The notes below the pieces were generated by a model. It had not been told where the DNA came from. It worked only from the letters and a program-made list of their open reading frames with translations, and did not search any database. A stretch of DNA of 64,000 bases. It comes from Elusimicrobiota bacterium (GTDB taxonomy: Bacteria > Elusimicrobiota > Elusimicrobia > UBA1565). Below are positions 3,976-38,382 of this stretch, piece after piece (the first letter of the stretch is position 1; each line of letters starts with the position of its first letter). The position numbers and the translations under genes are program-made. The stretch is from NCBI GenBank assembly GCA_041661185.1, contig JBAZUV010000004.1:9987-73986 (forward strand). Reading direction: 5' to 3'.

Positions 3976-4349
3976 GGTTCCAACAATTTCTTGACGGCCA
4001 GGAACAGCTCGTCGGCCGTGTAGGGTTTGGTGAGATAACCGTCCGCTCCGGCCTGGAGCGCGGCCTTGCGGTCCACGGGATAGGACTTCGCCGAGGAGAT
4101 CAGGATCTTCACGCCCTTGAATTGCTCGTCGGCGCGCAGGACCTGGCAGACCTCGAAGCCGTGCATCCCCGGCATCATGAGGTCCAGAACGATGAGATCG
4201 GGCCGGTGCGCGCGCGCCTGCGCCACGCCTTTGATCCCGTCATAGGCCGTGAAAACCTCGTAGCCGCCCGCGCGCAGGCATTCCGAGAGGAAATCAACGA
4301 TTTCCATATCATCGTCAACGACGAGGATGGTTTTCATGAAAAAAGTCAA
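3972..4349 (-). CDS. Single-domain response regulator (CheY-like receiver)
   Basis: MKTILVVDDD, LIVLDLMMPGMHG, ISSAK, DGYLTKP motifs; the start may be the MKTIL codon at 4337. Confidence 0.85.
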   Translation of the reverse strand: MTFFMKTILVVDDDMEIVDFLSECLRAGGYEVFTAYDGIKGVAQARAHRPDLIVLDLMMPGMHGFEVCQVLRADEQFKGVKILISSAKSYPVDRKAALQAGADGYLTKPYTADELFLAVKKLLEP

Positions 4350-10400: not shown

Positions 10401-11668
10401 AGCGCGCCGTAGGCTTCCAGGCGGTATCGCCCTTCGGAAGAAGCGGAATCCTCGTTCTTGGCCAAGGCCGTCAGCATCCCTTGGAAAGATTCAACAGCCC
10501 CGCGAGAGAAGCGGGCCGGCGCATGGCCGAGGTCTTCATACGCATCCTGGATCTGGGAGCGCAAGGACTGGAACAGCTCGCGCTCCTTGGAACCCGCGGG
10601 CAGTCCCTCAACGTGGGCCGCGCTCAGATCCATCAGCGCATTGAGCGCCGCGGCATTGAAGAGGATCTCCGCCTGCTCCTGGTCGGGATGCTGCTCTCCG
10701 AATATCTCCCGGTAGCGTTCATAGTCTTCTCTCGCGCCGGCGAAAAATAGCATGGCGGACAACGCTCCTTTCGCGCCGGCGGCCATGCCCGCGATCCCCT
10801 TGCGCACCTCGGCGCGCACGGATCGTCCGTCGAAGACCTCTTTTCCTGAACGCTCGACCTTCCCTTCGCTCAGGTCGAGCAAAAGGAAATCGCCGCTGCG
10901 CAGCGCCGCCAAGCGTCCCTCTCCAGCCAGTATCGCGAGCATCCGCCGGAGCTTGTCCCTGCCCCAGCCGGCGGACACTGCCGCAGACTGCGCCGCCAGC
11001 ATGACCGGCGAACCGGGTTTGACCCGATTGCTCAGGTCCATGTAAAGTATCCGCGCATCGCGCGCGTCATAGGAGGAAGCCTCCGGCGCATCGCCCGAGA
11101 CCGCGCCGGGAGTCAGGTCCCCCGGCAGCGGCTCGGGCTGAGCATCCTTGACCGCATCGAAGAGGGCTCCGGCCGCGGTCTTCGCAGTCGAGAGGTCCGC
11201 GCGAAGGATGGAAGGCAGAGAGTTCACGAACGCCTGCAGCCGACGGACGCTTGCGGCGCCGCGCGTCTTTGCGAAGATCAGCGCCTTCGCATCCGCGCTC
11301 GCCGCCGGCGCTTCGACCGCGGGAGCGAGCAGCGTCGGCGATCCCTCCCTGGGAACAAACCCCTGCGGCAGGACCCCAGGGGCCTTGACGTCGACTCTCT
11401 GGATCGGAAGGATGGAAGACCTCTCAAAAAATGAACTCTCCGGCATGATCTTGACGCCCTGCATAGGCGCGCCCGACATCGCCCCATTCCCAAACGTCCC
11501 GGGAACCGCCAAAGGAATGACCATTACGTCCGCAGCCGGAAGTTTGACGGTCTGGGCGGCGGCTTGCAGCGCGCCCAGGCCCGGACAGGTCCAGATCAGC
11601 GCGGCGCACATGATGATGGAAACAGCTCGAGGAATCTCCGCCCGGATCTTCAGAAAATATGGCTTCAT
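4451..11668 (-). CDS. 2405-aa multidomain protein: N-terminal hydrophobic segment, Clp_N-like repeats, ClpA/B-type double AAA+ (D1+D2), 2 TM, HAD-like phosphatase domain, ~8 TM, C-terminal HtpX/M48 zinc-peptidase domain
   Basis: A single stop-free frame of 7218 nt. D1 has Walker A GEKGVGKT (aa 735) and Walker [10 protein letters not shown]2 has Walker A GPTGVGKT (aa 1019), Walker [12 protein letters not shown] and sensor [10 protein letters not shown]. The HAD motifs are ILDYDKT, ASNRP and FGDDFG..DAAM. The M48 motifs are [28 protein letters not shown] and a C-terminal [11 protein letters not shown]. Confidence 0.7.
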
Positions 11669-11848: not shown

Positions 11849-11894
11849 GGAGCGTGTCACCAGATCACGACAAAGGATTATTCAGACACGCTCC
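11849..11894. repeat. 46-bp hairpin element (copy 2), overlapping the last codons and stop of the amidase gene
   Basis: ggagcgtgtcaccagatcacgacaaaggattattcagacacgctcc has the same arms as the 4404-4450 copy; the amidase stop codon lies inside the loop. Confidence 0.45.
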
Positions 11895-13830
11895 TGGCGG
11901 CTTTGCGCTCGGCGGGATCCGTCAATTGGAGATTCCGGTAGGCGTCATAATATCCGCGGAGTCCCTCGACCAAGGTCTTGGCGAAGCGGTCCTGCCAGAC
12001 AGGGTCCAAGAGCATCTCCTCCTGCTCGGGCAGCATCACATACGCGGACTCCGTGAGCACCGCGGGCATCTGCGGAATGCGGCAGACCGCGAGATCTCCC
12101 CAGCGCAGAGCATCGTCGAAAAGCGGGATGTCCTTGCGGTGAGCGGCCTGCATGGACTCGGCCAGGAACCGGCTCTGCGGATGATAGTAGAGCATCATGA
12201 ATCCGCGGGGCGCCTCGAAGGGGTCGTCGCTCGCGCCCAAGGCATTGTGATGGATGCTCACCAGCACGTCGCCCTTGGCATCCCACGCCAAGGCCGGCCG
12301 CTCCGTGAGCGCGGGCCCCGCGGAACTCGCGCGCGTGAGGTAAACCTGCGCGCCCTCGGCCTCCAGCAGGGCTTTGACCCGGAAGGCCGTTTCGAGGTTC
12401 ACGTCTTGCTCCTCGGTGCCCAAAGGGCCGAGTCCGCCGTGATCCGGCCCGTGCCCGGGGTCCAAGACCACGCGCCGCCCCTTCAAGACCTTGTCGGAGG
12501 CCGTCAGGTCCGGAGCCCGACGGATATCGAAGAGGAATCGCCCCTTCTCGTAGCGGGCATCATAGCCCGCGCTCCAGCGGATGCGCGTGCGCACGGTCAT
12601 GAGCACGGTCTGGGAATCCTCCTGCCGCCAGACCACCTCGCGGATGATGGGATCGTCGGAAGCATAGCGCAGGCGGTCGATGCGCTGATAGGCGCCGAAG
12701 AAGCGGATCTCGAATTCCAAGGGATCGAGCCGATGCGTCACGGAGAACGGCACGGGCCGCTCCACGGACACGGCCAGGCGCACGGAATCGGAAGACACGG
12801 AGGTGTTCAGATATCGGCCGATGAGGCCGCTGGGCGGCGCGGCGCCCTCGGGCAGCATGCGCACCTGCCCCGGGTCCACCCAGGCGTCATAGCCCGGAGC
12901 CAAGGATACTCGCAAACGGTCTCCAGAACGCCCGGTGACCGCGAGCTGGACCCCGGGAGGGATGAGGATATCGTATCCTCCGGCCAAGGTCTTGAGGATG
13001 GTGCTTCTCGCGGTGCTGATCGCGGTCTCATAAGCCTGCGGGTCCAGGATGCTCACGCGTCCCTGCGCATGCTCCGACCAGGAGCCTGCCTTGCAATGCA
13101 AGGAGACCTTCACGCGATGAGACTTGCCGTGAGCAGAGTCGCCCACGCGCCAGCGCCCGTCGTAGATCCCCGGGCTCGTTTCAAAGAGCGGCATGCCTTC
13201 GACGAGGTCTTCGACGCTGAAGTTCGCTTCCCCGCCCGCAGGCCCCTTGGCCCGGACGGCGACCCAATCGCCTGAGCGGACCCACTGGCTCTCGCGCGGC
13301 TCCAGGACCGCGATGCCGGATGTCCGGGCCTCCTCCGGTCCGTCCACGAGGACATTGCGCGCGAGCGAAGCCGAAGCCCCCGCGCGTTCGGCCAGAAAAT
13401 GAAGGACGAACGCGCCGCTGGAAAAATCCACCATGGACAAGAATGCTCCGTTGCCGCGCACGGGCAGGGAGATCCCGTTGACGGTCAGCGTGGAGCCGGG
13501 AGTGACGCTGCCGAACGCGAAAGCTCGCTTCAAAAAAGGATAGCGCATCCCTTCCTCGGGCCAAACCACGCGCAGTTCAGGAGCCGCTGCGGCTGGAGCG
13601 ACGGCCGTACCAGCGCTCGACACAGCGACAACAACGGCGCTCGATGTCTCAACAGAAGCCGTGACCGTAGACACGGCCTGCACCGTTGTCGTTGAGGAAA
13701 CATTCTGCGGGACCCGCATACCAGCGGGGAGTGCCGCATCCGAAGTTTGTTGGGACGCGGCCTGCGCCCGCGCCGGAGCGCATGCGAGCGCGAGCGCTGC
13801 GAAAAGCCAGCCTGCCGTCTGGAAATTCAT
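11878..13830 (-). CDS. N-acetylmuramoyl-L-alanine amidase (Amidase_3, AmiC-like) with N-terminal signal peptide and beta-rich targeting domains
   Basis: Catalytic domain motifs are VVLDPGHGPDHGG, EEQDVNLETAFRVKALLE and VLVSIHHNAL. The signal peptide is MNFQTAGWLFAALALACAPARA, from the ATG at 13830; the ORF runs to 13878. Confidence 0.85.
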   Translation of the reverse strand: MNFQTAGWLFAALALACAPARAQAASQQTSDAALPAGMRVPQNVSSTTTVQAVSTVTASVETSSAVVVAVSSAGTAVAPAAAAPELRVVWPEEGMRYPFLKRAFAFGSVTPGSTLTVNGISLPVRGNGAFLSMVDFSSGAFVLHFLAERAGASASLARNVLVDGPEEARTSGIAVLEPRESQWVRSGDWVAVRAKGPAGGEANFSVEDLVEGMPLFETSPGIYDGRWRVGDSAHGKSHRVKVSLHCKAGSWSEHAQGRVSILDPQAYETAISTARSTILKTLAGGYDILIPPGVQLAVTGRSGDRLRVSLAPGYDAWVDPGQVRMLPEGAAPPSGLIGRYLNTSVSSDSVRLAVSVERPVPFSVTHRLDPLEFEIRFFGAYQRIDRLRYASDDPIIREVVWRQEDSQTVLMTVRTRIRWSAGYDARYEKGRFLFDIRRAPDLTASDKVLKGRRVVLDPGHGPDHGGLGPLGTEEQDVNLETAFRVKALLEAEGAQVYLTRASSAGPALTERPALAWDAKGDVLVSIHHNALGASDDPFEAPRGFMMLYYHPQSRFLAESMQAAHRKDIPLFDDALRWGDLAVCRIPQMPAVLTESAYVMLPEQEEMLLDPVWQDRFAKTLVEGLRGYYDAYRNLQLTDPAERKAARSVSE

Positions 13831-14393
13831 ATTTTCGCCGACCTCCATTCCCCCGGCCTGAGCCCTTCCAAAGTCCACGCGCCCACGCGCACGCGCACCA
13901 GACGCAGGGTCGGATGTCCGATCGCGGCCGTCATCCTGCGCACCTGCCGGTTGCGGCCCTCGGTCAGGGTCATCTCAAGCCAGACCGCGGGAACGTTCTT
14001 GCGAAATCGTATCGGAGGATCGCGCGGCTCCGACACCGGCTCGCCTTCGATCAGTCGCACGCGGCAAGGCTTCGTCGGACCGTCTCGCAGGGTCACTCCG
14101 CGCGCCAAACGCTCCAGCGCCTCGGCCGACGGCAGACGCTCGACCTGCGCGAGATAAGTCCGCTCATGCCCGAAACGCGGATCGCTGAGGCGATGGTTCA
14201 ATTCCCCATCCGCGGTCAGGACCAGCAGCCCTTCGCTGTCATGATCGAGACGCCCCACCGGATAGATTCCCTTGGGCAGCCCGAACTCCGAAAGAGAACG
14301 ATGCCCGTCGCGCGCAGTGAACTGCGAGAGCACCCCATACGGCTTATAAAACAATACGACTCCGCCCGCCCAAGATATGCTCATGAACCGCAA
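13827..14393 (-). CDS. RsuA/RluE-family rRNA pseudouridine synthase
   Basis: 188 aa with catalytic VGRLDHDSEGLLVLT motif and a RluE-like C-terminus; its stop overlaps the amidase start by 4 nt. Confidence 0.85.
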   Translation of the reverse strand: MRFMSISWAGGVVLFYKPYGVLSQFTARDGHRSLSEFGLPKGIYPVGRLDHDSEGLLVLTADGELNHRLSDPRFGHERTYLAQVERLPSAEALERLARGVTLRDGPTKPCRVRLIEGEPVSEPRDPPIRFRKNVPAVWLEMTLTEGRNRQVRRMTAAIGHPTLRLVRVRVGAWTLEGLRPGEWRSAKI

Positions 14394-14432: not shown

Positions 14433-14512
14433 GGTGCCAGGCGTCAACTTGATTGAAATTCAACTTGCTCGGCCGAGCAAGTTGAATTTCAATCAAGTTG
14501 ACGCCTGGCACC
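14433..14512. repeat. 80-bp perfect palindromic element (copy 1) with GGTGCCAGG / CCTGGCACC termini
   Basis: ggtgccaggcgtcaacttgattgaaattcaacttgctcgg|ccgagcaagttgaatttcaatcaagttgacgcctggcacc is exactly self-complementary and identical to 59681-59760. It lies between the pseudouridine synthase and the kinase genes. Confidence 0.8.
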
Positions 14513-14533
14513 GGCATTCGGCATACTGGCGGC

Positions 14534-15844
14534 ATGTTCCGGCTTGCATTCCTCCTTCTGGCTGGACTCGCCCAAGCCTCGCCCCCGGCTGGGTCCAACA
14601 GTCTTTCTCTCATCCGCGATTCGTCGGAGCCCTCGGAAACAGCCTCCAGCCGGACCCCTGACGCCGGGAACGCGGTCAGCCCCGAAGATAAGGAAAGCTC
14701 GGAAGTCCCCCTGGAGAGAGCCAGGACGCTGCTCCCGAATGCGCCGCTGCTCAGCGGCGCACGCGTCGAATTGCCGCAGACGCCCCAGTCCTCCCACCCC
14801 CCTTCCCAGCCTCCGCCGCCTCGCAGCGGCTTCGCGGCCGCGCCCTCGGATGCCTGGCAGCTGCTCGATGCCGTGGCCGAGCCGCGTCCCGACGCGGCTC
14901 CATGGACCATTCTCGCGCTCCTGAGCCTGTCGACTCTCGCTTGCCTGGGACTTTCCCGGATCCGCCGCAGGCCGGTTGAAGAACCGGCGTCCGCGTCCCC
15001 GGCGGACAACGATCTCCTCGCCGGGAAATACGAACTTTTGCGCATCATCGGCAAAGGCGCGATGGCCGATGTCTGGGAAGCCGCGGACCGTTCGCTCGCC
15101 CGCCGAGTGGCCGTCAAGAAGATCACCTCGCAGCAAGCGCATCCTATCGATGAGGCCCGCGCCTTGGCCTCCCTTCATCATCCTCATATCCTGAGCATCT
15201 ATGAGGTGCTCGATGTCCCCCAAGGGCTCTACCTGGTCTTCGAATTCGTCTCGGGAAAGACCCTTCAGCAGCTACTCGTGGAAGAACACCGCTTGGATCT
15301 TGAGCGCGCCAAAGCCGTGCTCCTGCCGGTCTGCTCGGCCCTGGCGGCCGCTCACGACCGCTGCATCGTGCACCGGGACCTCAAACCCGCAAACATCATG
15401 CTTTCCGACGATGGGAATATCAAGGTGATGGATTTCGGCATCGCCTTGAGGATCGGGACATCGCAAGCTCCTGCCGTTGGAACGGATGGAGTTTCCCATC
15501 CCGGCAGCAGGGCTTCCTCCTTCGAAGGGACGCCGGCCTACATGGCCCCGGAAGCGCAAGACGGCTGCGTGAGCCCGTCCTGCGACGTCTATTCCCTGGG
15601 AGTCTGCCTCTACGAGCTCTTATCCGGCGAGCGTCCTTTCGGGCAGGTCTCCCTGCCCCAGAAGCTCGTGCGCGCCTATCCCCGACTCAGCACGCGCGTC
15701 CCGGGCCTGCCGAAGGACGCGGATGCGCTCATCGACGCGGTCTTGGACCCGGATCCCCGCACGCGGATGAAGGATGTCCGCGCTTTCCGCCGAGTATTGG
15801 AATCTATCGTGTTGGAAACAGAAACAGTCCGGCCGCGCCCATGA
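14534..15844 (+). CDS. Hanks-type Ser/Thr protein kinase, membrane-anchored
   Basis: Kinase motifs are GKGAMADVWEA, VAVKK, HRDLKPANIML, DFGIA and APE. It has an N-terminal signal/TM, a Pro-rich spacer and a TM (WTILALLSLSTLACLGL) ahead of the kinase domain. The ATG at 14534 (MFRLAFLLL) is preferred over the ORF start at 14498, which lies inside the palindrome. Confidence 0.85.
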   Translation: MFRLAFLLLAGLAQASPPAGSNSLSLIRDSSEPSETASSRTPDAGNAVSPEDKESSEVPLERARTLLPNAPLLSGARVELPQTPQSSHPPSQPPPPRSGFAAAPSDAWQLLDAVAEPRPDAAPWTILALLSLSTLACLGLSRIRRRPVEEPASASPADNDLLAGKYELLRIIGKGAMADVWEAADRSLARRVAVKKITSQQAHPIDEARALASLHHPHILSIYEVLDVPQGLYLVFEFVSGKTLQQLLVEEHRLDLERAKAVLLPVCSALAAAHDRCIVHRDLKPANIMLSDDGNIKVMDFGIALRIGTSQAPAVGTDGVSHPGSRASSFEGTPAYMAPEAQDGCVSPSCDVYSLGVCLYELLSGERPFGQVSLPQKLVRAYPRLSTRVPGLPKDADALIDAVLDPDPRTRMKDVRAFRRVLESIVLETETVRPRP

Positions 15845-18800
15845 CCCAGCGCTTGAAGACGTCCCTCACGGCCTGCCGCCAGCCCCGCGCCGGCGGAAGG
15901 TCCGCGGACCTTGCCGCGAAAAACCCGTAACGCTCCCGCGCCCGGCTCATCATATCCCGCGACTGCGCGATCACCCGCTCCGGTTCCTTGAGTTCCTCTT
16001 CCAGCGCCGCAAGCGCGCGCTTCTCGTCGATGAGCCCCGCCCCAGCCTCCAGAAGACCCTGTCCGGCCAAAGGAGCGGCGGTGCGGGCGATCAAGGACTC
16101 CAGGTAGAAGCTGTAGCCGTCGGGCAATCCATCGGCCTTCTCCCGAAGCACCGCCGCCATCTTCTCGATGAGCAGCGCGAATTTCCCGGTGGTATGTTCG
16201 GCCGCGACCGAAGTCCCGGAGAACGTGCGGTAAAGAGGCTTCCCCTGCCACAAGACCGTGGTGGGAGCGTCCTTGGCTTGCTGGGCGAGCTTGGAAGCGA
16301 AGGCCGAGGCGATCTCATAGGGATTGGGCATGCCGAACGCCACGGCTCCGCCGTAGTCCACCCAGGAAAGCGCCGCGGAATCCGCGGAACCCCTTGCCGA
16401 ATAGAAAGCCAGGGCCCCGGATTTATCCACGGCTCCCACGCGGATGGCGAGTTCGGCCTTGGCCGGGACATCCAGGCTTCCGGGCGAGGGCCCTTCATTG
16501 CCCGCCGCGGCGATCACCGTGATGTTCTTGAGCCTGAGCGCATCCACGAGCCTGGCGAACGGAGAATCCGCCCTCCCCTGACCGCCGAGGCTCAGGTTCA
16601 CGATCATCGGAGTCTTAAGCGGGTCTTGGACCAGGCTCGCGGCCCATTCCAGCCCGGCCATGACCATGGCATCGGTCCCGCCGTCCGCGCTCAGGACTTT
16701 CCCGACCGCGAAGTCCACGTCGGGCGCCATGCCCTCGTAGGGAGAGCCCTCCACGCTGCGTCCGCCCACGATGCCCATGCCGTACGTCCCGTGGCCGAGA
16801 GCCTCTCCATCGACCGCGTTCCCCGGAGCCGTAAAATTCCTCTTGCCCTTGATGCGGTCCCCGGCCAAGGCCGGATGCGAAAGATCCGCGCCCTCGTCGA
16901 GATAAGCCACGAGCACGCCCCGGCCCGTCAGGCCCGAAGCCGCCCGTATCTCCGGGATGCCGGAAAGAGGGCCGGTCTCATTGAGCAGAGGATAGACCGG
17001 CCGCGCCTTATGCACCCTCCAGCCCTTGGACTCCAGCTCCGCGGTGAAGGCCAGGACCTGCGTATCCGGGACATTCACCCATAGCGCCTGCGCATTCGGG
17101 AAAGCCGCCTGCAAATCCGCCTCGAAACGCTCCATGACGGCCGGCTCCAAGCCGTAACCCGCGGCCGCGCTGAGCGCCGCGCTCTTGGCTCCGCCGCGAA
17201 GATCCTGGAAGCGCTCCACGCGCGGCGCAAGAAGGCCTTCTTTCGTGTTCGCGCGCGGAAGCTCGAGTATCAGATGCAGAGGCCCAAGATTCGGGTCCAC
17301 GCCCGCCACGCCCGCGCCGCCGCGGTCCTGGACCGGAGTGGGAAGATCGAGCGGGATATCCAGGATCTTGGCCAGCGTCGAGACCAGCTCGCCCAAAGCC
17401 CCCGGCCGGCCCGCCGCGGCCTTATGCGCCTGGACGAAGCCCGCGGCGCTCTCGCGCAGAGGCGGCTTCTTCAACCGCGTCTTGAACGCCGCGGACCGGT
17501 TCGCGGTCCGGAAGAACTTCGAGATCGTGCGCGTCAGCGCGAGGTTCCCAGGACCCGCCGCAGCCAAGAGAGCGCAAACGGCTCCGTCCGTGATCAGGGC
17601 CTGGTTCAGGTTGGCGAGCTCCGTGAGCGACGCCGCGGCCAGATGGCGGATATTGCCGCGCTCCGAGGCGTCCGCGACGCGGCCGGCCAAAGCCTCCACG
17701 ACCTCCGGCGAAGCGCGCCCGCCCAGCTGTCCGGCCAGCCACACGGCCGTAAATCGCGTCTTCTTATCAGGATTCGTCATCTCCGCGCGGATCCTGGGCA
17801 GGCCGGAGACATCCCCATGCCGGGCCAGAGCATAGGCGGCATAAAGCCCGACGTCGGGCCGCTCATCGCCGCACGCCTTGCGCAGAAGTTCATCGGCGCC
17901 GTAATGCGGGATCTCGGCCAAAGCCAGGAAAGCCGTCTGCCGCACGCGGCCGTCCTCATCGCTCAACGCCGCCGCGGCCAAGTCCAGCACGGCCTCCGGC
18001 GCCTTGAGGTTCATGAGCGTGAAGGCCGCATAGAAGCGGACCACCCAGACCTCGTCTTTGAGCGCCTGCCTCAGTTCCGGGGCCGCCTGCGCCCGGAGCT
18101 GCGCGAAGCGGGCCTGGACCGACTGCTCATCCTGCGCGGAAACAGCCTCAGGGACCGCCTCATCATCATCCTCGGAAGGTTCTTCGGAGGCGCCTTCCGC
18201 GCGAGCGTCGCGCGAGCGAGCCGCGTTCTGCCGGCCGACCTCCGCGGCGCCATTAAAGACCCGGTCCTCCAGGCGCTGGACCTGCGCGGCGCGGTCGATC
18301 CAAGCCCAGGAAGGAACAGGGCTCGCCGCGGCCAATCCCGCGGCAGCGGCGAGCACCCTGAAAAGCTTAAAGCGCGAAACGCCCGGCGCCGGGCCGAAAG
18401 TCTCTGCCGCGAGCTTGACGGCCGCCAGCGCGTCCACGAAACCCGCCCCCTGGAAAAAAACAGGGACGCGCATATCCACCGCGGAACGCATAAGCAGCAT
18501 CTTCACGCAGAAAGACAGCTGATCGCGGAAATACTCGTACGCCGCGGAGCCGGCGCCGATGACCTTGCGGACGGCCTGCTTGACCAGCAATGCGATGGCC
18601 GCCACCTGGGGATTGGCCATGGAGGACCCGGCCATGCGGGTATGGAGCCCGTCCTCCGTATTGGAAGGGCCCGGCGGCATATCCTTGGAACGGACCGAGG
18701 TGATGCCCTGCGAATAGACGTCCTTGTTCCCCGGAAGAGTGGTCACGTCCCCGCCCAGCGCCGTGATGTCCGGCTTGAGGACCCAGCGCGTGAGTCCGTA

Positions 18801-21800
18801 GCGCTTGAAGCGGCCGTCCAATGCCGGCCCCACCGAAGAGTAGAACGCGGTCTCCGGTACGCCGTCGTCGAGGCTTTTGGCCGCGGCGCCCACGTCGATC
18901 ATGTTCCGGGCGTTGGCGGGCTGGCTCAAGGTCTTATTGAACGGACCCGCGTTCCCGCTCGATCCCGTGCCGATGAGCGGCTCCCCGGAAGCGCTCTTCT
19001 GCTCCAAGAGATGCGAGAAAAACTCAGCCAAGGGCGCATCGCTGTCCCCGGGACTGCCGAGGCTGACGCTGACGACGTCCGAACCCCACTTCATGGCATC
19101 CACGGCCGCGGCCATGATGTCGCCGTCGGAAGCGCCCTGCCCGGCCTGGGAGAAGACCTTGCCCATGCGTCCCTCGGCCGCGGGCGCCATGCCCTTGTAA
19201 AGAGGCCCGTTGGCATAGGAGATGCCGGCCTTATGCGTGCCGTGCCCGCTCCAATCCTCGGGTCCCTCGCCCACGAAATCGATGCACTGCAGGATGCGGT
19301 CCGCGAAATCAGGATGCGTCACATCGAGCCCGGTGTCGATATCGTAGATGCGTCCGCCTTCGCCCCGGATGCGGAGCTTCCAGACCGGCACGACGTCCTG
19401 GATGATCCCGCTCTCGAGGAGCTGGACGCGGTAGCCTCCGCGGGAAGCTCCGAAGCGCACGCCGCGCGCGCCGGAAAGCCGCTTGAGCACCTTCGAGTAG
19501 GCCTTGAGCACGCTGACATAGATGCGGTTGTCTCCCACGTCCCGGCCGAAGACATGTCGGACCCGCAAGCCCGCCTGGACGAAGCGCGCGCGCTCCTGGT
19601 CGTTGAAGCCGAAGGAGCGCAGAAGATCGTCCTGGGCCGGCGCGGAAGGGTCCGTATCGAGGTTGAGCTGCGAATGAGGAAGGCTCACCCCTTTGGCGGG
19701 AGTCAGCCACAGGTTCAGGCGCGGCTCCATCTTTCGCGCCACGATCACGTGCCCGCCCTCGGCAAGGTCCACGCGCTGGACCTGGAACTCGCCGTTGTCC
19801 GAGGAAGTCCAGAACCGGAAAACCCTTTCGACCAGCGCGACTCCGGGATCGGAGGAATGGAAAGGAAGGAGCACGATCCCATGGTCCTGCAGCCCCGCGT
19901 ACAAAGCCTGCAAATAGTCTGCCAGGCCCACGTCCTGGAGCTGGGTCCCGGAGAACTCGTTCATCATCTTGTTCAAGGCCGCGGAGACTCCCTCGACCGA
20001 TCCATTGCCCCCCACATGCACTCCGATGTTGTCGCCCAGAGTCTTCAATCGCAGAGCCAGCGGCCCGCCGGACTTGAACCCTTCGCGCGAGCTCGAGCGG
20101 TTGCGCTGTTCGAGCCGATAGGCCTCGTCGATGGAGCGCAGGGCCTGCTCAAGCCGTCGGTTCTCCGCGGAGTCCTCCAAAGGCAAGGAGAGATGGACGT
20201 TCGGGAGCACGATCACCCGGTAGCGGCCGGCATGCTCGGGCGCCTGGAGGAGCCTCTTGAGCTCCGAAGGCTCCACGCGGGCGTTCTCCCGGGATGCGAA
20301 CCCGGTCATGTCCGCAGGATCGGCGACCACGAGCCCTTTCTCCGGCAGACCGGTATAAAGACCCCGCACGCGCGCCCGTCCCTCGGAGAGCACGTCATAG
20401 GCCGAGGGGTTCAGGAGCTCCGAGCTGGAAGGCTCGACGATGAGCACGGGATAAGGAGCCCCCAGACGCAGGGAGACCTGCGCCTCCTTCAAGACGCGTT
20501 CGAGCACCGGGATGCGCAAGGACTTGAGCCACTGCCGGCTGTGCCATTCCCCGGCGCGGGCCAAGGCCTCGTCGCTCAGTCCGCGGAAGAATCCCCCGAG
20601 TCCCTTGCTGCGCCGAGCCAAGGGTTCGCGCCGGCCGTTCTGCAGATAATGCCCCATCTCGTGCTTGAGCACGGCCTGGAAGAGCCCGGGCGCGCGCGCA
20701 AGCTCGGGCCGCAGATAGATCGCATCGCCCTGCGACACGCCGAAAGCGAAACCGGAGAAGCGCCCCCTCTGCGGCCGGTAGATCCGCAGGATGCCGCGGC
20801 CGGGAGCGTATCCCAGCAATCCGGAGATCACGCTCGGATGCAGGCCCATCTCCAGGAGCTGGGCTTTGGCGAAATCCCAGAACTCGCGGTCCGAGATATC
20901 GGCCCGAAAGAAAACAGCCCAAGAGAACACGGCAAGGTCATAGAGCGCCCAGCCTGAGAAGACCGCGCCCATCACCCCCGCGGCCGCCATCGTGACCCGC
21001 AAAGGCTCCGCGAACGCGGCAAGAGCCTCCACCAGCCAGGGGGAGTGGATCAGCGCCGCATGCGCAAGGACCCAGCCGGACCCAAAGAACACGGCTGCGG
21101 CCGTTATGAAAACCGCGGCCGACAACGCCGCCAGCACCGCCGGGAACAGCACTCTGCGATACCGGATCTCCTGCTGCGCGGACTTCCGAGCCGCAAGCGC
21201 CGGGACCTGCCCGGAAGTCCGGCCCGCGCCTACAACTCCGTCATCCCGGTCCACGTCTACAACTCCGTCATCCCGGCTGACGACAGCGCCCTGCTCGTCA
21301 TTCCGGCGAAAGCCGGAATCCAGGATAAGGCTGGACCCCGGGTCAAGCCCGGGGTGACGACGGCCGACTGCACCCCGCCCTTCGCCGGGAGTCTGAATCT
21401 CCAGACCCCCTGCTTGGCCAAGTTCTCCTTGCCCGCCGAGACGGCGCGTGAAATCCTCGGCCGCGGCCTGCTGGGAAGCTTCGATCCCTCCATCCGCAGC
21501 CTGATCCAAGAATGAAGACGGCCCGCGCAGAGCCTTCCATAAACGCCCGGCTCCGCGGACGAACAAACGCACGACCCCTTTGCTCGCTTCATCCTTGCGG
21601 CCAACTTCGTCATCTCTGCTCGCGTCTACAACTCCGTCATCCCGGCGAAAGCCGGGACCCAGCAGTAGCCTGGACCCCGGGTCAAGCCCGGGGTGACGAG
21701 AGTAAAGGGTCTTGCCATTCACTGCGCCGGAAGCTTCCTGCTTATCGGGAAAGATCTCCATCTTTGGGACATCCACAGATACGCCCACGCCTGAACCCGC

Positions 21801-22085
21801 AAGCGGCTGGAGCTCGTTGGACACAGGAAGCGTCAGCAGAAAAGGCAGTGCGTTCCGGGGAAGAAAGATGGCCGGACCGGAAGGGATGCCGGCAGCCGCG
21901 ATCTGCTGGACGGGAAGCGCTTGACCTGCGGGAACGGCCTGCGCAGCGCCGGAAACCGCGCTCTGCGCCCAAAGCTCATAGGAGCGCGCTCCGGGAGACA
22001 GCAGTATGAGCGCCGCGCAGAGCGTGCCCGCGACTGTCTTTTTACAACGGACTGCGAAATTATTCCTATCCAATGCCCGGCCCAA
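15804..22085 (-). CDS. Giant membrane-anchored multi-protease: HExxH metallopeptidase-like motif, two subtilisin S8 domains, HEAT repeats; true start probably near ~21100
   Basis: S8 #1 has the triad DIDTG, SGHGTHKAG, GSSMANPQVAAIA. S8 #2 has LDEGAD, LGHGTYG, AAGNEG, SGTSVAAEHTTG. HEAT/PBS repeats lie between them (VRQTAFLALAEI..., TRFTAVWLAGQLG...). KHEMGHYLQNG follows a 2-3 TM block. N-terminal residues ~60-300 translate the hairpin-repeat DNA (RHPGLDPGS...GFRRDD twice). Confidence 0.7.
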   Translation of the reverse strand: MGRALDRNNFAVRCKKTVAGTLCAALILLSPGARSYELWAQSAVSGAAQAVPAGQALPVQQIAAAGIPSGPAIFLPRNALPFLLTLPVSNELQPLAGSGVGVSVDVPKMEIFPDKQEASGAVNGKTLYSRHPGLDPGSRLLLGPGFRRDDGVVDASRDDEVGRKDEASKGVVRLFVRGAGRLWKALRGPSSFLDQAADGGIEASQQAAAEDFTRRLGGQGELGQAGGLEIQTPGEGRGAVGRRHPGLDPGSSLILDSGFRRNDEQGAVVSRDDGVVDVDRDDGVVGAGRTSGQVPALAARKSAQQEIRYRRVLFPAVLAALSAAVFITAAAVFFGSGWVLAHAALIHSPWLVEALAAFAEPLRVTMAAAGVMGAVFSGWALYDLAVFSWAVFFRADISDREFWDFAKAQLLEMGLHPSVISGLLGYAPGRGILRIYRPQRGRFSGFAFGVSQGDAIYLRPELARAPGLFQAVLKHEMGHYLQNGRREPLARRSKGLGGFFRGLSDEALARAGEWHSRQWLKSLRIPVLERVLKEAQVSLRLGAPYPVLIVEPSSSELLNPSAYDVLSEGRARVRGLYTGLPEKGLVVADPADMTGFASRENARVEPSELKRLLQAPEHAGRYRVIVLPNVHLSLPLEDSAENRRLEQALRSIDEAYRLEQRNRSSSREGFKSGGPLALRLKTLGDNIGVHVGGNGSVEGVSAALNKMMNEFSGTQLQDVGLADYLQALYAGLQDHGIVLLPFHSSDPGVALVERVFRFWTSSDNGEFQVQRVDLAEGGHVIVARKMEPRLNLWLTPAKGVSLPHSQLNLDTDPSAPAQDDLLRSFGFNDQERARFVQAGLRVRHVFGRDVGDNRIYVSVLKAYSKVLKRLSGARGVRFGASRGGYRVQLLESGIIQDVVPVWKLRIRGEGGRIYDIDTGLDVTHPDFADRILQCIDFVGEGPEDWSGHGTHKAGISYANGPLYKGMAPAAEGRMGKVFSQAGQGASDGDIMAAAVDAMKWGSDVVSVSLGSPGDSDAPLAEFFSHLLEQKSASGEPLIGTGSSGNAGPFNKTLSQPANARNMIDVGAAAKSLDDGVPETAFYSSVGPALDGRFKRYGLTRWVLKPDITALGGDVTTLPGNKDVYSQGITSVRSKDMPPGPSNTEDGLHTRMAGSSMANPQVAAIALLVKQAVRKVIGAGSAAYEYFRDQLSFCVKMLLMRSAVDMRVPVFFQGAGFVDALAAVKLAAETFGPAPGVSRFKLFRVLAAAAGLAAASPVPSWAWIDRAAQVQRLEDRVFNGAAEVGRQNAARSRDARAEGASEEPSEDDDEAVPEAVSAQDEQSVQARFAQLRAQAAPELRQALKDEVWVVRFYAAFTLMNLKAPEAVLDLAAAALSDEDGRVRQTAFLALAEIPHYGADELLRKACGDERPDVGLYAAYALARHGDVSGLPRIRAEMTNPDKKTRFTAVWLAGQLGGRASPEVVEALAGRVADASERGNIRHLAAASLTELANLNQALITDGAVCALLAAAGPGNLALTRTISKFFRTANRSAAFKTRLKKPPLRESAAGFVQAHKAAAGRPGALGELVSTLAKILDIPLDLPTPVQDRGGAGVAGVDPNLGPLHLILELPRANTKEGLLAPRVERFQDLRGGAKSAALSAAAGYGLEPAVMERFEADLQAAFPNAQALWVNVPDTQVLAFTAELESKGWRVHKARPVYPLLNETGPLSGIPEIRAASGLTGRGVLVAYLDEGADLSHPALAGDRIKGKRNFTAPGNAVDGEALGHGTYGMGIVGGRSVEGSPYEGMAPDVDFAVGKVLSADGGTDAMVMAGLEWAASLVQDPLKTPMIVNLSLGGQGRADSPFARLVDALRLKNITVIAAAGNEGPSPGSLDVPAKAELAIRVGAVDKSGALAFYSARGSADSAALSWVDYGGAVAFGMPNPYEIASAFASKLAQQAKDAPTTVLWQGKPLYRTFSGTSVAAEHTTGKFALLIEKMAAVLREKADGLPDGYSFYLESLIARTAAPLAGQGLLEAGAGLIDEKRALAALEEELKEPERVIAQSRDMMSRARERYGFFAARSADLPPARGWRQAVRDVFKRWVMGAAGLFLFPTR
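21225..21362. repeat. GC-rich GNRA-hairpin cluster 2 (includes a 3x direct repeat of tctacaactccgtcatcccgg extending into cluster 3)
   Basis: It contains gtcatcccggc..., gtcattccggcgaaagccggaatccagg and ctggaccccgggtcaagcccggggtgac. Confidence 0.55.
21625..21690. repeat. GC-rich GNRA-hairpin cluster 3
   Basis: gtcatcccggcgaaagccgggacccag ... ctggaccccgggtcaagcccggggtgac (an inverted pair). Confidence 0.55.
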
Positions 22086-22090
22086 AAACG

Positions 22091-23314
22091 TCAGCGCATG
22101 AAATAAAAGCCCGACTCATCTGCGCGCGGCTCTTCGTCCAAGACCGTTTGCGGACGCGTCCGGGACTTCCCGGGCGCCGCCCTCTGCGTCCGCACGGGAG
22201 CGGGTCCGAAGCTCTCGCGCGTGCGCCGCCGACGGAAAGAATCCGAATCGCGATCCTCCGCATCAGACCGCAAGGCCGGCTCCTCCTCCGCATCCCCCTG
22301 CTCCCCATGCGCGTGCGAATGCCGCTTGGACAGAAGCGTGCTGTCGGCTCCGATGCGGAAAGGCGCGGCCACGCCCACCATCAGTATGAAGCTCTTGTAG
22401 GACTGCGTCCCATAGGCCTTGACCTCCCCGTTGAAGAAATAGCTGGGGAAGCTCCCTTCATGCTGCACGCCGAAGAGCAGCCGGCTCTGAAAAGGCTCGG
22501 GCTTGCCGCTGGCCTCGCCGTAGGAAGGCGTGATGGCTGTCTTCCAATCCGAACGCATCCAGCCGTAGACGGAGCCGGTCATGTGATTGAGCCCCACTCC
22601 GCCGAAGGGCGTCCAATGCCCGTAGGTCTGGCTGAGCATCGCGTTGACGCCGTAGCTGCGCACGTCCCACTGCAGATGCCCGGTATTGAGGCTGTCGGCC
22701 GTGAATCCCTGGGCCAGCTCCATATTGCTGAACTCGTTGTGGAAATCGAAGCGGCCGAACACGCGGTTGAAGGCGCCGCTCACGCTCAAAAGCGGCAGGC
22801 TGCCGCCGAAGAAGTGCTTGCGCACGGAGAGTCCGACGGTGTTGATCTGCCCGCCCCCCTGCGTGGATTCCGAGAGCTTGTAGCCCTTGGGAATGGTGAC
22901 GTTGACCAGGCGCAAACCCATGTCCATGCGCGAGGGCAGGCCCATGCGCATGTGCATGGTCAGATTCGGGAATATGACCTTGTCCGGGAGCATGGCCCCG
23001 GGATTCTTCTCCGCCAAGGCCCGGACCTTCATCTCCGGGAAGGACTTTTTGTCATAGGGAAGCATGCCGATACCGAAGCTCAGATCCGGCTGCACGCGCC
23101 AGGGCCGCATCTCATTGGGCGGATCGAAAGTGGAACCGGCATTGAAGGCCAAGCCTTCCGCGGTCTGCCGCGTGATCCAGGTCATGATCTGCGCGTAATC
23201 ATCCGACATGCTGGGGTTCGCCGCTCTACATACGGGCGCGCGCGCGTATAAAAAAGTCAAAAGCAGGAGAACCGCCAAAGCACGAACAGGCAGGCTGTTG
23301 CGGATATTCTTCAT
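22091..23314 (-). CDS. Hypothetical exported beta-rich protein (possible outer-membrane beta-barrel) with acidic/basic low-complexity C-terminus
   Basis: 407 aa with signal peptide MKNIRNSLPVRALAVLLLLTFLYARAPVCRA, alternating amphipathic strands, and no recognised catalytic motifs. Confidence 0.55.
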   Translation of the reverse strand: MKNIRNSLPVRALAVLLLLTFLYARAPVCRAANPSMSDDYAQIMTWITRQTAEGLAFNAGSTFDPPNEMRPWRVQPDLSFGIGMLPYDKKSFPEMKVRALAEKNPGAMLPDKVIFPNLTMHMRMGLPSRMDMGLRLVNVTIPKGYKLSESTQGGGQINTVGLSVRKHFFGGSLPLLSVSGAFNRVFGRFDFHNEFSNMELAQGFTADSLNTGHLQWDVRSYGVNAMLSQTYGHWTPFGGVGLNHMTGSVYGWMRSDWKTAITPSYGEASGKPEPFQSRLLFGVQHEGSFPSYFFNGEVKAYGTQSYKSFILMVGVAAPFRIGADSTLLSKRHSHAHGEQGDAEEEPALRSDAEDRDSDSFRRRRTRESFGPAPVRTQRAAPGKSRTRPQTVLDEEPRADESGFYFMR

Positions 23315-23346
23315 GCCTTAGCGTTCATCACAAGTTCTTTTTCTTT

Positions 23347-23470
23347 CGTCATCCCGGCGAAAACCGGGACCCAGCCATCCGTCTCCCCGGCGAAAGCCGG
23401 GGTCCAGCTGATCCTAGATCCCGGCTTCCGCCGGGATGACGGCCTTACCGGCTCTCGCCGGAATGACGGG
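23347..23470. repeat. GC-rich GNRA-hairpin cluster 4
   Basis: gtcatcccggcgaaaaccgggacccag, ccccggcgaaagccggggtccag, ccggcttccgccgggatgac, ctctcgccggaatgac. Confidence 0.6.
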
Positions 23471-23802
23471 ATGCATGCGGACATCAGCGGGGAAGGGATG
23501 CGGGCCGGCTCCGGTCCGTCTGCCAAAGGAAGGCGCGTCTATCCGAACGGCACTGCAGGGACACCCGAGGGCGCAGGAGCAGCTCCAGCGAAGCCCAACG
23601 CGGGAAAGCCGCGCTCTGCTGTCCTTTTTTTCCGTGTTTTCTCATATTTTCTCCGATGGCCGACACCTGCCTGCCATCACTGCTATTATAAAGGGACCGG
23701 CGCCATCATGCCTGTGCCGCCGGACCCACCCCCCTCGAAGCAAAGGACCCAGCCCCACCCACCCCAAAAGACCCATACGGACCCGCCTCCAGCATAAGAC
23801 AA

Positions 23803-23834
23803 GGGAGCCGGACCTTTTTCAAGGCCCGGCTCCC
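23803..23834 (-). terminator. Possible intrinsic terminator after the LuxR-type regulator gene
   Basis: gggagccggacc-tttttcaa-ggcccggctccc forms a ~12-bp stem 25-55 nt past the stop, followed on the transcribed strand by the U-containing stretch uugucuuaug. Confidence 0.35.
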
Positions 23835-23859
23835 TTGTATAGATGGAAGGCGGCGTATT

Positions 23860-24537
23860 TTACGCGAAAGTACCTTCCTCCGCGGATATGATGCCCATCT
23901 CGATGCCTTTGACCACGGCTTCGGTGCGGTTGCTGACATCGAGCTTCTGGAAGATGCTGTTGAGGTGGTTCTTGACCGTCTTGACGCTGCAGCCCAGGGT
24001 CGCGGCGATCTCCTTATTGGACTGCCCGCGTCCGAGCAGGGCCAACACCCGGATCTCGGTCTTCGTCAGGGCCACCAAGGTCGCCTCGGCCGTGGCGCTC
24101 GACATCTGCCGCAGGCCCTGGATGAGCTTGCCCATGACCGGCTGAGGGATCATGACGCCTTCGTTGGCGAAGGTCTTCAAAGCATTGACGAGCTCGGAAG
24201 CCGGGAGCATCTTTGAGAGATACCCGTTGGCCCCGGCCTGGATGGACTCCATGACGTGCGCCTCGTCCTCATAGGAGGAAAGGATGAGGACGTTCGTGTC
24301 CGGGCACTCCTTGCGGATCTGCCGCGTGGCGCTGACGCCGTCCATATGCGGGAGCTTGATGTCCATGAGGATGACGTTGGGCTTGAGCTTCTTGGCCATG
24401 CGGACCGCTTCCGCTCCGTCGGCGGCTTCGCCGATGACCTGGATGGATTTCTCGTTCTCGAGAAGATCCTTGATTCCCTCGCGGAACAAAGTCTGGTCAT
24501 CCGCAATAAGGACCGTCAGTCGCTTCTTGGCTGCCAT
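23860..24537 (-). CDS. NarL/FixJ-family response regulator (REC + LuxR-type HTH)
   Basis: VLIADDQ, ILMDIKLPHMDG, SSYED and an HTH (LTKTEIRVLALLGRGQSNKEIAATLGCSVKTVKNHLNSIFQKL). Confidence 0.9.
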   Translation of the reverse strand: MAAKKRLTVLIADDQTLFREGIKDLLENEKSIQVIGEAADGAEAVRMAKKLKPNVILMDIKLPHMDGVSATRQIRKECPDTNVLILSSYEDEAHVMESIQAGANGYLSKMLPASELVNALKTFANEGVMIPQPVMGKLIQGLRQMSSATAEATLVALTKTEIRVLALLGRGQSNKEIAATLGCSVKTVKNHLNSIFQKLDVSNRTEAVVKGIEMGIISAEEGTFA

Positions 24538-24582
24538 TCTTCCCCCCTATCCAACGCGTACGATACAAAAAAATCAACACGC

Positions 24583-24645
24583 CGTCATCCCGGCGGAAGC
24601 CGGGACCCAGCAGTTGCCTGGACCCCGGCTTTCGCCGGGGTGACG
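24583..24645. repeat. GC-rich GNRA-hairpin cluster 5 (inverted pair)
   Basis: gtcatcccggcggaagccgggacccag-cagttgc-ctggaccccggctttcgccggggtgac. Confidence 0.6.
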
Positions 24646-24658
24646 ATGACGCGCCGCA

Positions 24659-25789
24659 CTAGGCCTTGGCGCGCCCTTCCTTCTTGGCGGCCGGGACCGC
24701 GAAATAAAACGTCGCGCCCTTGCCCGCGCCGGCCGACTCCACCCAGAGCCGCCCGCCGTGACTTTGGAGGATCTCCTTGGAGATCGAGAGCCCGAGCCCC
24801 AGACGGCCCTGGTTGCCGCCGCTGGACTGATAGAAGCTCTCGAATATCCTGGGCAGGTCCTCCTTCGATATGCCGTCGCCGGTGTCTCGCACCGCGAAGC
24901 AAACCTCGCTGTCCTTGGCCGTGACCTCGACGGTGACGCAGCCGCCCTTGGGCGTATGCCGCAGGGCGTTCTCCAGAAGATTCAGGAGCACCTGCCCCAG
25001 CCTCCGCTTATCCGCATGGATGTCCGGCAGCCCGGACGCGATCTTCGCGGAGAGTTCCAGCCCTCTTTGCTGCGCCTTGGCCTGGGGGCCGGCCAGCAGG
25101 TCCTCGATGAGCTTGCCGGGCTGCAGCGCCGTGCGCTCCAGGCGGAACTTCCCCTGCTCGATGGCGGCCCAGTCGACCAAGTCTTCGATGAGCCGGGAGA
25201 GCTGGGACAAGCCTCCGGAGATGTAGGTGAGCCTCTTCTTCTGCTCCGCGTCGGGCTTCAAGTTCTGCTGGAGCATGTCGAAGGAGACCTGCAGAGTCAT
25301 CAGGGCGTTGGAGAGGTCGTGCGAGGACATCGAAAGGAACTTGGACTTCATGTTGGACAGATAGAGCAGCTGCTCGTTGGCCTTGCGCAGGTCCTCGAGA
25401 AGCCGCTTATTGTCCTGCTGAAGGCGCAGCTGGTCCACGCACTTGTTGATGACGCGCTTGAGATGGTCGAAGTCCACGGGCTTGACGTGGAAGTCGTAGA
25501 CCGACTCCTGGATGGCCTTGAGCGCCGTGTCCAGGGAGGCGTGCGCGGTCAGCATGAGGATCTGGCTGTCCTTGTTGATCTTGCGGATCTGCCGGATGAC
25601 CTCGATGCCCGTGGTGTCGGGCAGGTTGTAGTCCATGAGGATCACGTCGAAGAAGTCCGTGACCACGGCCTTCATGGCCTCCGCGCCCGAGCCCGCCTCG
25701 GACACGGTGCAGCCTTCGAGCTCCAGGTTGTCCCGGATGCTGTCGCGAAGATGCGCGTCGTCGTCTACGATAAGGATCTTGGCATTCAT
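24659..25789 (-). CDS. Hybrid signalling protein: N-terminal receiver + HisKA + HATPase_c
   Basis: ILIVDDDAHLRD, ILMDYNLPDTTG, H-box LSMSSHDLSNAL, DTGDGIS, LGLGLSISKEI. The start overlaps the upstream histidine-kinase stop by 4 nt. Confidence 0.85.
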   Translation of the reverse strand: MNAKILIVDDDAHLRDSIRDNLELEGCTVSEAGSGAEAMKAVVTDFFDVILMDYNLPDTTGIEVIRQIRKINKDSQILMLTAHASLDTALKAIQESVYDFHVKPVDFDHLKRVINKCVDQLRLQQDNKRLLEDLRKANEQLLYLSNMKSKFLSMSSHDLSNALMTLQVSFDMLQQNLKPDAEQKKRLTYISGGLSQLSRLIEDLVDWAAIEQGKFRLERTALQPGKLIEDLLAGPQAKAQQRGLELSAKIASGLPDIHADKRRLGQVLLNLLENALRHTPKGGCVTVEVTAKDSEVCFAVRDTGDGISKEDLPRIFESFYQSSGGNQGRLGLGLSISKEILQSHGGRLWVESAGAGKGATFYFAVPAAKKEGRAKA

Positions 25790-38364: not shown

Positions 38365-38382
38365 CCTACGTTCCTTCTTTTT

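Follow-up and report, generated by a model that had tools for sequence, protein, structure and literature searches.

A 64-kb stretch of DNA from an Elusimicrobiota bacterium (contig JBAZUV010000004.1, here called the window; G+C 58-68%) carries on its reverse strand a gene, 15804..22085, for a protein of ~2,000 amino acids (aa) with two subtilisin-type (S8) peptidase domains and a possible third protease active site. The gene is read here as single and intact, beginning at TTG 22085 or TTG 22073, and its product as an Elusimicrobiota-specific, membrane-anchored multi-protease with its body in the periplasm and a β-barrel protein of the outer membrane (OM) as its partner; taken as a whole, this composite reading is about evenly balanced between right and wrong. 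The original prediction, made from the window's sequence, of a single membrane-anchored open reading frame (ORF) of 2093 codons was borne out, as the frame runs without internal stop or frameshift, and a frameshift or chimera is ruled out by an architecture that is common to seven orthologues and 23 relatives.

From the N- to the C-terminus the protein consists of a signal peptide, a low-complexity linker of ~270 aa, a two-helix hydrophobic anchor, a zincin-like domain (HExxH...E), a methyltransferase-fold domain that lacks the S-adenosylmethionine (SAM) loop, subtilase 1, HEAT repeats, subtilase 2 and a short hydrophobic tail (Table 1). Among the S8 peptidases its architecture is a new variant, and we know of no described subtilase that joins zincin-like, methyltransferase-fold, HEAT and second S8 domains in one chain. 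The seven orthologues (1852-2140 aa, 49-59% identity to the window protein) all come from metagenome-assembled genomes (MAGs) of Elusimicrobia and share this architecture. Public annotation of the family is limited to “S8 family serine peptidase” or “hypothetical protein”, and a literature search found no paper describing it.

The start of the gene

The identical gene sequence is present on three contigs in public records, where it has been called as a protein of 2093, 2089, 1985 or 1762 aa. The long form is favored because the signal peptide, a linker motif at aa 183-217 and R310 are conserved, because orthologue N-termini match in a single frame, and because the upstream gene abuts position 22085. 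When the N-termini of orthologues were compared by tblastn with nucleotides (nt) 21100-22400, only the frame of the ORF was matched, from nt 22043 downward and across two repeats (see below), the five orthologues whose N-terminus is complete giving E = 4e-13 to 7.5e-9 and P0007, which has a short one, 1e-4. Across a 23-member family set the signal peptide shows the recurrent motif LSPGLxxYxALAQ (the cleavage site was placed from the sequence, without a dedicated predictor), the linker residues L186, P189, S190, A208, F212 and G217 are invariant in the seven orthologues, and so are R310, F314 and P315 just before the hydrophobic block. The stop codon of the upstream gene lies 5 nt before TTG 22085; at locus L001 the upstream gene (8868-10004) and the protease gene (from 10001) overlap by 4 nt. 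A run of 311 stop-free codons has a calculated chance probability of ~1e-4 at this GC content, and codon-position periodicity (low GC2) continues through the 5′ part.

The original prediction had placed the real start near 21100 and had offered the in-frame start at 22085, with its signal-like segment, as an alternative, and it is this alternative that the orthologue N-termini favor. A start near 21100-21152 is disfavored because the invariant Arg310, the RYRxxxFP motif, the linker motif and the signal peptide, all of which lie upstream of it, would be lost. Such a short form would leave the first ~300 codons untranslated, opened by GC-rich repeats, and would yield a protein of 1762-1782 aa without signal peptide or linker. 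It would account for the two repetitive extragenic palindromic (REP)-like elements in this region, other copies in the window being intergenic, and it has on its side the Joint Genome Institute (JGI) call of 1762 aa from GTG 21092, the lack of an ATG start on the long form and a comparable REP-containing 5′ ORF extension at 38383-38488. Codon usage points the same way and weighs, with the start codon, against the long form: the G+C content of third codon positions (GC3) is lowered to 0.59-0.68 in the first 294 codons vs. 0.80-0.84 in the body, a fall at the 5′ end that exceeds that in the orthologues, the TTG start has no obvious Shine-Dalgarno sequence, and the gene callers disagree. Set against this are three conserved blocks in one frame upstream of the proposed short start (the signal peptide, the aa 183-217 motif and the invariant R310), with no stop over 311 codons, together with the exclusive match of the orthologue N-termini to this frame through both repeats, the maintained low GC2 and an upstream gene that abuts 22085 as in the orthologues, and the short form is considered improbable. 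Judged by these sequence comparisons, the long form, from 22085 or 22073, is the correct one, and the REP-like elements appear to be in-frame insertions in a disordered linker.

Palindromic elements within the gene

Hairpin repeats had been recognized in the 5′ part of the ORF, and two copies are indeed present where 0 are expected by chance; the suggestion that the N-terminal ~300 residues as a whole are translated repeats was too broad, as only ~87 aa (129-162 and 242-294) correspond to them and the remainder aligns with the orthologues. Composite copies occupy 21296-21360 and 21635-21699 and are adjoined by short tandem derivatives. The window contains 15 copies of the hairpin unit CGTCATYCCGGCGAAAGCCGGRA and four of a second arm, GACCCCGGGTCAAGCCCGGGGTGACG, where 0 are expected in either case, and the units have a paired inverted arrangement, the pairs often measuring ~60-65 nt. 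With many copies, hairpin potential and numbers far above chance, the elements are dispersed repeats of the REP or miniature inverted-repeat transposable element (MITE) type.

Fusions of palindromic elements in frame into genes, including the Rickettsia palindromic elements, have been reviewed (PMC10969869). As in the Rickettsia, MITE and REP cases, short dispersed palindromes are apparently read here as part of a conserved protein, in a region tolerant of insertion; unlike in Rickettsia, the elements belong to another family (~65-nt paired hairpins with CGTCATYCCGGCGAAAGCCGGRA), only two copies are coding and the others seen are intergenic. The insertions would be tolerated because they are located inside a disordered spacer. 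Translation of the repeat-encoded residues is predicted from sequence only, and on that footing the gene would be a clean example of palindromic repeats taken in frame into a protein. It also illustrates how such repeats mislead start calling, with four public gene calls for one sequence.

Further REP clusters are situated between genes at 773-940, 23347-23468, 24583-24645, 38383-38488 and 57558-57635. An ORF of 608 aa on the reverse strand (36841-38667) crosses the cluster at 38383-38488 and overlaps the end of the preceding gene (38516), and its 5′ extension is probably an artefact of the kind that had been suspected at 22085.

The two subtilase domains and the HEAT repeats

Peptidase_S8 (PF00082) is matched twice by Pfam (E 4.7e-55), best at aa 916-1215 and a second time at ~1720-1975, and the first domain scores 187 bits vs. 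a gathering score of 21.8, with profile positions 9-288 of 288 covered. The catalytic residues of domain 1 align with those of Tk-SP (3afg) and those of domain 2 with those of subtilisin Carlsberg and an intracellular subtilisin (GTSVAAEH against GTSMATPH), and both sets are invariant in the seven orthologues. Besides the Pfam match, each domain has the Asp-His-Ser order and the oxyanion Asn of Peptidase_S8 members. The catalytic His is taken to be the first His of HGTH (H64 in subtilisin BPN′ numbering), so the HGTY of domain 2 keeps it. The claim of two complete S8 domains was thus confirmed by Pfam, solved subtilases and orthologues, with none of the catalytic residues misread, and so, by HEAT_2 matches above the gathering score, was that of HEAT repeats between them: HEAT_2 is found twice (~aa 1336-1468; 59.5 bits vs. 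gathering 27.7), and HEAT scores 32.8 vs. 23.5. Over their whole length the two S8 domains are 27% identical. At aa 1963 of domain 2 (nt ~16197-16199), this genome alone has Glu for Pro, i.e., GTSVAAEH where the orthologues all have GTSMAAPH, the Pro being present in 6/6. A search for a solved relative of aa 1490-1715 found none, and ahead of subtilase 1, where a possible prodomain-like unit is modelled, Pfam Inhibitor_I9 gave no match.

The fate of the two active sites was followed in 23 family sequences. In subtilase 1 the Asp is kept in 20 and the His, Asn and Ser in 23/23, and the triad as a whole in 20/23. The full triad of subtilase 2 is present in 7/23, the window clade plus a small number of others; 14/23 are pseudoproteases in which the His loop is deleted and the Ser replaced by Gly or Ala, and in two the domain is absent or truncated. 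Pfam agrees with the alignment, seeing one S8, or a weak second one, in relatives with a degenerate second domain. The family is therefore a natural series from active to dead second subtilase and should be useful for studying the origin of pseudoproteases.

Tandem subtilases had been called unusual; they are uncommon, but not unknown, since CspBA of Clostridioides is a fused active protease and pseudoprotease, and the second S8 is itself a pseudoprotease in most relatives of the window protein. As in CspBA and CspC, tandem S8 domains stand in one chain, and ~14/23 relatives pair a protease with a pseudoprotease, whereas the organism, the location and the accessory domains differ and both triads are intact in the window protein. 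Its NCBIfam matches to CspBA (NF040809, 27 bits vs. a cut-off of 1250) and CspC are weak, as is one to EprS, and membership in CspBA was rejected on this score. The nearest NCBIfam model for subtilase 2 is the mycosin of type VII secretion systems (TIGR03921). Mycosins and site-1 protease (S1P) resemble the window protein in being membrane-tethered, and in the window protein subtilase 2 is followed by a hydrophobic C-terminal tail, but at 106.4 bits vs. 278.75 the score is below the cut-off, mycosin membership was rejected, and no ESX/type VII secretion genes are found among the neighbours of the protease gene in the window.

Giant envelope proteins of Omnitrophota have been described with predicted-extracellular HEAT_2 repeats and S8 domains that may self-process (bioRxiv 10.1101/2023.11.21.568195). 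By analogy, they seem to be the nearest parallel in the literature, in that very large envelope proteins of uncultivated bacteria have HEAT_2 and S8 together; they differ in phylum, size range and domain set, and the likeness was drawn from these shared generic domains.

The zincin-like and methyltransferase-fold domains

The isolated segments aa 1-311, 312-560 and 561-900 have zero matches in Pfam and NCBIfam, and aa 396-900 have none in Pfam, NCBIfam or the sequences of the PDB. An AlphaFold2 (AF2) model was available for aa 300-905, with a mean predicted local distance difference test score (pLDDT) of 69 and a predicted template modelling score (pTM) of 0.61, and the structural statements on this part of the protein refer to it.

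The HExxH motif that had been noted after the membrane block is there: HEMGH at aa 475-479 follows the hydrophobic aa 313-393 and is invariant. H475, E476, H479 and E506 are invariant in the seven orthologues and in an 18-member sub-alignment and are kept in 19/23 relatives, so that the gluzincin signature, HExxH with a family-conserved downstream Glu, is present. The secondary structure in the model, with β strands, the HExxH helix and a helix carrying E506, has an order that fits a zincin fold; fold searches with the whole model were dominated by the methyltransferase-like domain and did not report on this small unit. Profiles of aa 300-905 and of the HExxH mini-domain found chance-level matches only in the PDB (gamma-tubulin complex component, CENP-X), and hhalign of the HExxH profile with the M48 domain encoded by a neighbouring gene (see below) aligned just 16 residues around HExxH, at a probability of 5.7%.

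A resemblance of the unit to DUF4157, presumably the former name of PF13699 (eCIS_core), had also been proposed and turned out to be faint. Pfam finds no match of PF13699 to the window segment at E up to 10; the model is touched by 3/18 family members (best E 0.027, sub-threshold), and M78, M48 and M76 appear faintly, below threshold, in one member each. The Gln of HExxHxxQ, a DUF4157 trait by the original prediction's description rather than by comparison with the Pfam model, is present as Q482 only in the window protein and is replaced by G, S or K in the orthologues. Membership in DUF4157/eCIS_core was rejected on these scores and on the non-conserved Gln, leaving the idea as a weak lead. 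In M48 (HtpX/Ste24-like), M56 (BlaR1), M78 (ImmA/IrrE) and PF13699 zincins, as here, the HExxH helix comes just after membrane helices; in the window protein a β strand (IYLRPEL) comes before it, and a later helix carries the invariant Glu, 27 residues further along. Unlike members of these families, the unit has no significant match to any of them and no conserved Gln in HExxHxxQ, and its profile found no relatives outside the protease family among 1.84 billion proteins. At the sequence level the zincin-like mini-domain thus looks like an orphan.

The last part of the model is an α/β domain. For aa ~545-795, fold searches with the model returned a Rossmann-like seven-stranded fold, and the system to compare is that of the class I SAM-dependent methyltransferases with a helical insert (RsmH/METTL15 type). 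Unlike those enzymes, with which it shares no sequence similarity, the domain has no glycine-rich SAM loop and its strand 2 does not end in an acidic residue. After strand 1, the window protein has VLIVEPSSSE and the orthologues VLIVHPSxxE in place of the glycine-rich motif I, and a Pfam scan of the domain gave no methyltransferase match. It is probably a non-catalytic scaffold, a pseudo-enzyme that also appears, from sequence searches, to be an orphan.

Membrane anchor and topology

Within the hydrophobic block (aa 313-393), the Kyte-Doolittle profile has a peak of 2.42 at aa 316-334 and values of 1.4-1.5 at aa 364-393. The model has two helices (model residues 4-47 and 50-92, with low pLDDT), and two hydrophobic peaks are seen in most relatives. 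A periplasmic location of the linker and the catalytic body is preferred because a conserved Sec-type signal peptide is combined with an even number of membrane helices.

Several observations weigh against this placement. The hydrophobic hairpin has basic residues on either side and hardly any charge in its inter-helix loop, so that, by the positive-inside rule, cytoplasmic flanks are favored; proteins with HEAT repeats or a methyltransferase fold are more typically cytoplasmic; and the best solved match of subtilase 2 is an intracellular subtilisin. They lead to a serious rival, on balance unlikely, in which the catalytic body is cytoplasmic and only the linker is periplasmic, reaching the OM barrel in the manner of a TonB or anti-sigma spacer, so that the protein would be a protease of trans-envelope signalling or quality control. 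The Arg and Lys residues at both ends of the block, the methyltransferase fold, the HEAT repeats and the kinship of subtilase 2 with intracellular subtilisins all suit this arrangement; the 81-aa block could, moreover, fit three helices, as three peaks are seen in some relatives, the module of the window clade is syntenic with two-component regulators, and distant relatives adjoin genes for GH77 and debranching enzymes, which are usually cytoplasmic. The zincins FtsH, HtpX and BlaR1, which are membrane-proximal, offer a comparison for such a protein. It is countered by the model and the hydropathy profiles, which give two helices and not three in most members, by the methyltransferase-like domain, which without its SAM loop needs no cytoplasmic SAM, and by the units ahead of both S8 domains, which, to judge by the AF2 model, may be like the prodomains typical of exported subtilases.

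The outer-membrane barrel partner

The gene directly upstream encodes a protein with a signal peptide, an N-terminal helix, a barrel and a disordered basic tail. A signal peptide together with a closed antiparallel barrel that resembles solved OM proteins identifies it as an OM β-barrel, the best matches being equally porins or OmpT-like proteins with 10 strands. Its match to DUF6588 (PF20230) is weak (16 bits, E 0.007, gathering score 27). Its homologues form 87 clusters, all of them from Elusimicrobia where named, and many carry PF20230, as do the partners at loci L003 and L004. A literature search on DUF6588 found no papers.

A barrel homologue stands directly upstream on the same strand in 14/15 loci with enough DNA, and the protease and the DUF6588-type barrel are a two-gene module. 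The exception is L012 (1-7349), which has no barrel gene and in which an ORF for a LuxR-type regulator (3540-4229) is followed directly by the protease gene. In both proteins of the window pair, a charged or disordered stretch leads to a short C-terminal motif that is hydrophobic and rich in aromatic residues, ...GFYFMR in the barrel (C-terminus at nt 22091-22340; consensus LIFIQ) and ...GLFLFPTR in the protease (consensus TLFLxPxR), and these C-termini could be a shared sorting or docking signal.

One might imagine the two genes as a split autotransporter-like pair, in which the barrel would export the protease, or display it or its fragments at the surface, for the digestion of extracellular protein and, in relatives with an amylase, of α-glucan too. 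NCBI lists one barrel homologue as an autotransporter barrel, autotransporters with S8 passengers are known, there is the weak EprS match, and relatives with fused α-amylase domains adjoin maltodextrin-type ABC (ATP-binding cassette) transporters. To our knowledge there is no precedent for such a split pair, and it differs from a type Va autotransporter, a single chain with a C-terminal 12-stranded barrel, in that the barrel is a separate upstream gene and the protease has no C-terminal barrel. With passenger and barrel on separate polypeptides, internal hydrophobic helices that should stop transfer of the protease at the inner membrane, and 10-stranded porin or OmpT-like barrels matching equally well, this explanation is very improbable.

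Distribution of the family

When the profile of aa 300-905 was run against 1.84 billion representative proteins, only 50 were found, all of the same multidomain family or fragments of it, and every classified member came from Elusimicrobia or Elusimicrobiota. A scan of GTDB species genomes gave 12 loci, of which 11 carry the title of an Elusimicrobia or Elusimicrobiota MAG and one (L015) that of an unclassified “bacterium” MAG.

Longer, distant relatives (L003, 10001-17848; L004, 10001-17095; P0034; P0026) have an added C-terminal α-amylase catalytic domain, some of them also with a multi-helix MEX1_N-like membrane domain, and the loci of distant relatives contain genes for a maltodextrin-type ABC transporter, GH77, a debranching enzyme (GDE_C) and further amylases. 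Such gene content suggests a link of the protease chassis to the use of α-glucan in the amylase-fused relatives.

Proposed mechanism and significance

In the proposed mechanism, the linker and the catalytic body would be periplasmic, fixed to the inner membrane by the anchor, and would act together with the OM barrel. Subtilase 1, conserved across the family, would be the main protease. Subtilase 2, predicted from its residues to be active here and dead in most relatives, would probably serve above all for binding or regulation, with cleavage as an added ability in the window clade. The HEAT repeats may form a docking surface for the substrate or for the basic tail of the barrel, and the zincin-like domain may carry out cleavage close to the membrane, such as self-processing or the trimming of peptides. 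Two further points weigh against the composite reading: the zincin assignment, drawn from the motif and the predicted secondary structure, is a possible one only, and the architecture and partnership from which the mechanism was inferred were read from sequence and models.

Elusimicrobiota are almost all uncultivated and the biology of their envelope is little known. For this conserved module restricted to the phylum, an OM barrel together with a protein of ~2,000 aa that has up to three protease active sites, a role particular to the lineage is probable, in envelope proteolysis or in the acquisition of nutrients, and nothing about the module breaks with known principles. A bolder version, which is improbable, would see in the protease and its dedicated DUF6588 barrel an undescribed envelope-spanning proteolytic machine, present in Elusimicrobiota only, whose chain, anchored in the inner membrane and with three active sites, would reach or dock onto its own OM channel via the linker or the HEAT repeats. 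If it existed, the machine would process imported or surface polymers, and the relatives fused to amylase and MEX1 would couple the breakdown of protein and α-glucan to uptake.

Table 1. Features of the protease gene, its upstream partner and the convergent kinase gene, in window coordinates.
Feature	Position (nt)	Strand	Remarks
Whole protease gene	15804..22085	-	TTG start 22085, or TTG 22073 (2089 aa); stop codon 15804-15806
Predicted signal peptide, Sec-type, aa 1-40	21966..22085	-	Basic n-region, hydrophobic core, SPG..Y.LWA/Q (cleavage at the slash); aligns with orthologue N-termini
Low-complexity linker, aa 41-309	21159..21965	-	A/P/V/S/G-rich in orthologues
REP-like copy 1	21602..21699	-	Encodes aa 129-162 (SRHPGLDPGSRLLLGPGFRRDDGVVDASRDDEVG) in the frame of the gene; gap here in the alignment with orthologues
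Conserved linker motif, aa 183-217	21435..21539	-	LxxLxxPS...E..R.AAEDF..R.GG; between the two REP copies
REP-like copy 2 and short tandem derivatives	21206..21360	-	Encodes aa 242-294 in the frame of the gene; gap here in the alignment with orthologues
Membrane anchor, aa 310-394	20904..21158	-	Invariant R310, F314 and P315, then two long hydrophobic helices
Zincin-like mini-domain, aa 396-545	20451..20900	-	HEMGH aa 475-479 (nt 20649-20663); candidate third ligand E506 (or E513)
Class I methyltransferase-fold domain with helical insert, aa ~545-795	19701..20453	-	No GxGxG SAM loop
Possible subtilisin prodomain-like β-α-β unit, aa ~838-900	19386..19574	-	From AF2 secondary structure only; low pLDDT at the end
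Subtilase domain 1, aa ~905-1230	18396..19373	-	D917, H948, N1045, S1155
HEAT repeats, aa ~1326-1490	17616..18110	-	HEAT_2 E 4e-16, HEAT 5e-8, NblB-like 4.6e-5
Subtilase domain 2, aa ~1715-2020	16026..16943	-	D1730, H1765, N1863, S1959
C-terminal hydrophobic tail, aa 2075-2093	15807..15863	-	RWVMGAAGLFLFPTR; conserved in seven orthologues, F2088 invariant; overlaps the kinase 3′ end
Partner gene, 407-aa OM β-barrel of DUF6588 type	22091..23314	-	Stop codon 5 nt before TTG 22085
Membrane Ser/Thr kinase gene (Pkinase)	14498..15844	+	Convergent; 41-nt overlap (15804-15844) with the protease 3′ end

The genomic neighbourhood

The neighbours of the protease gene in the window encode the OM barrel, two-component regulators, a kinase, an amidase and a ClpB-M48 fusion. 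Preceding the barrel-protease pair in the window clade are genes for a LuxR-type response regulator, a hybrid kinase and a dCache kinase. A scan of 15600-24700 for promoters and terminators stayed at chance level, and PADLOC matched the protease through generic subtilase and HEAT domains only, giving no evidence of a defence system.

The overlap with the convergent kinase gene, which the original prediction had put at 40 nt, is real, its length being 41 nt. In the kinase, a signal-like N-terminus is followed by ~130 aa rich in Pro and Ser, a single hydrophobic helix (aa ~137-155) and a C-terminal Pkinase domain; the annotated start of its gene is a TTG. A tail-to-tail overlap of this length, with no space for a terminator, might be taken for functional or regulatory coupling, e.g., antisense control or a kinase-protease pair. 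At L002, however, the sole orthologous locus whose downstream DNA was examined (the contig of L001 ends just past the protease gene), a FolD gene takes the place of the kinase, distant relatives have other neighbours, and the C-terminus of the protease is conserved whatever the neighbour. Coupling was rejected because the kinase is not conserved at the orthologous locus, and its probability is put close to nil.

Between the kinase gene and a giant ClpB-M48 gene lies a gene on the reverse strand (11878-13878, 666 aa) for a protein with a C-terminal Amidase_3 domain (N-acetylmuramoyl-L-alanine amidase), the first 470 aa of which have no Pfam match. The giant itself (4451-11668, reverse strand, 2405 aa) has ~700 N-terminal and 800 central residues without a Pfam match, a ClpB-like double AAA+ core (AAA, AAA_lid_9, AAA_2 and ClpB_D2-small, aa ~708-1268) and a C-terminal Peptidase_M48 domain (aa ~2099-2403), and it is matched by the PADLOC models PDC-M37B and DolB ATPase.

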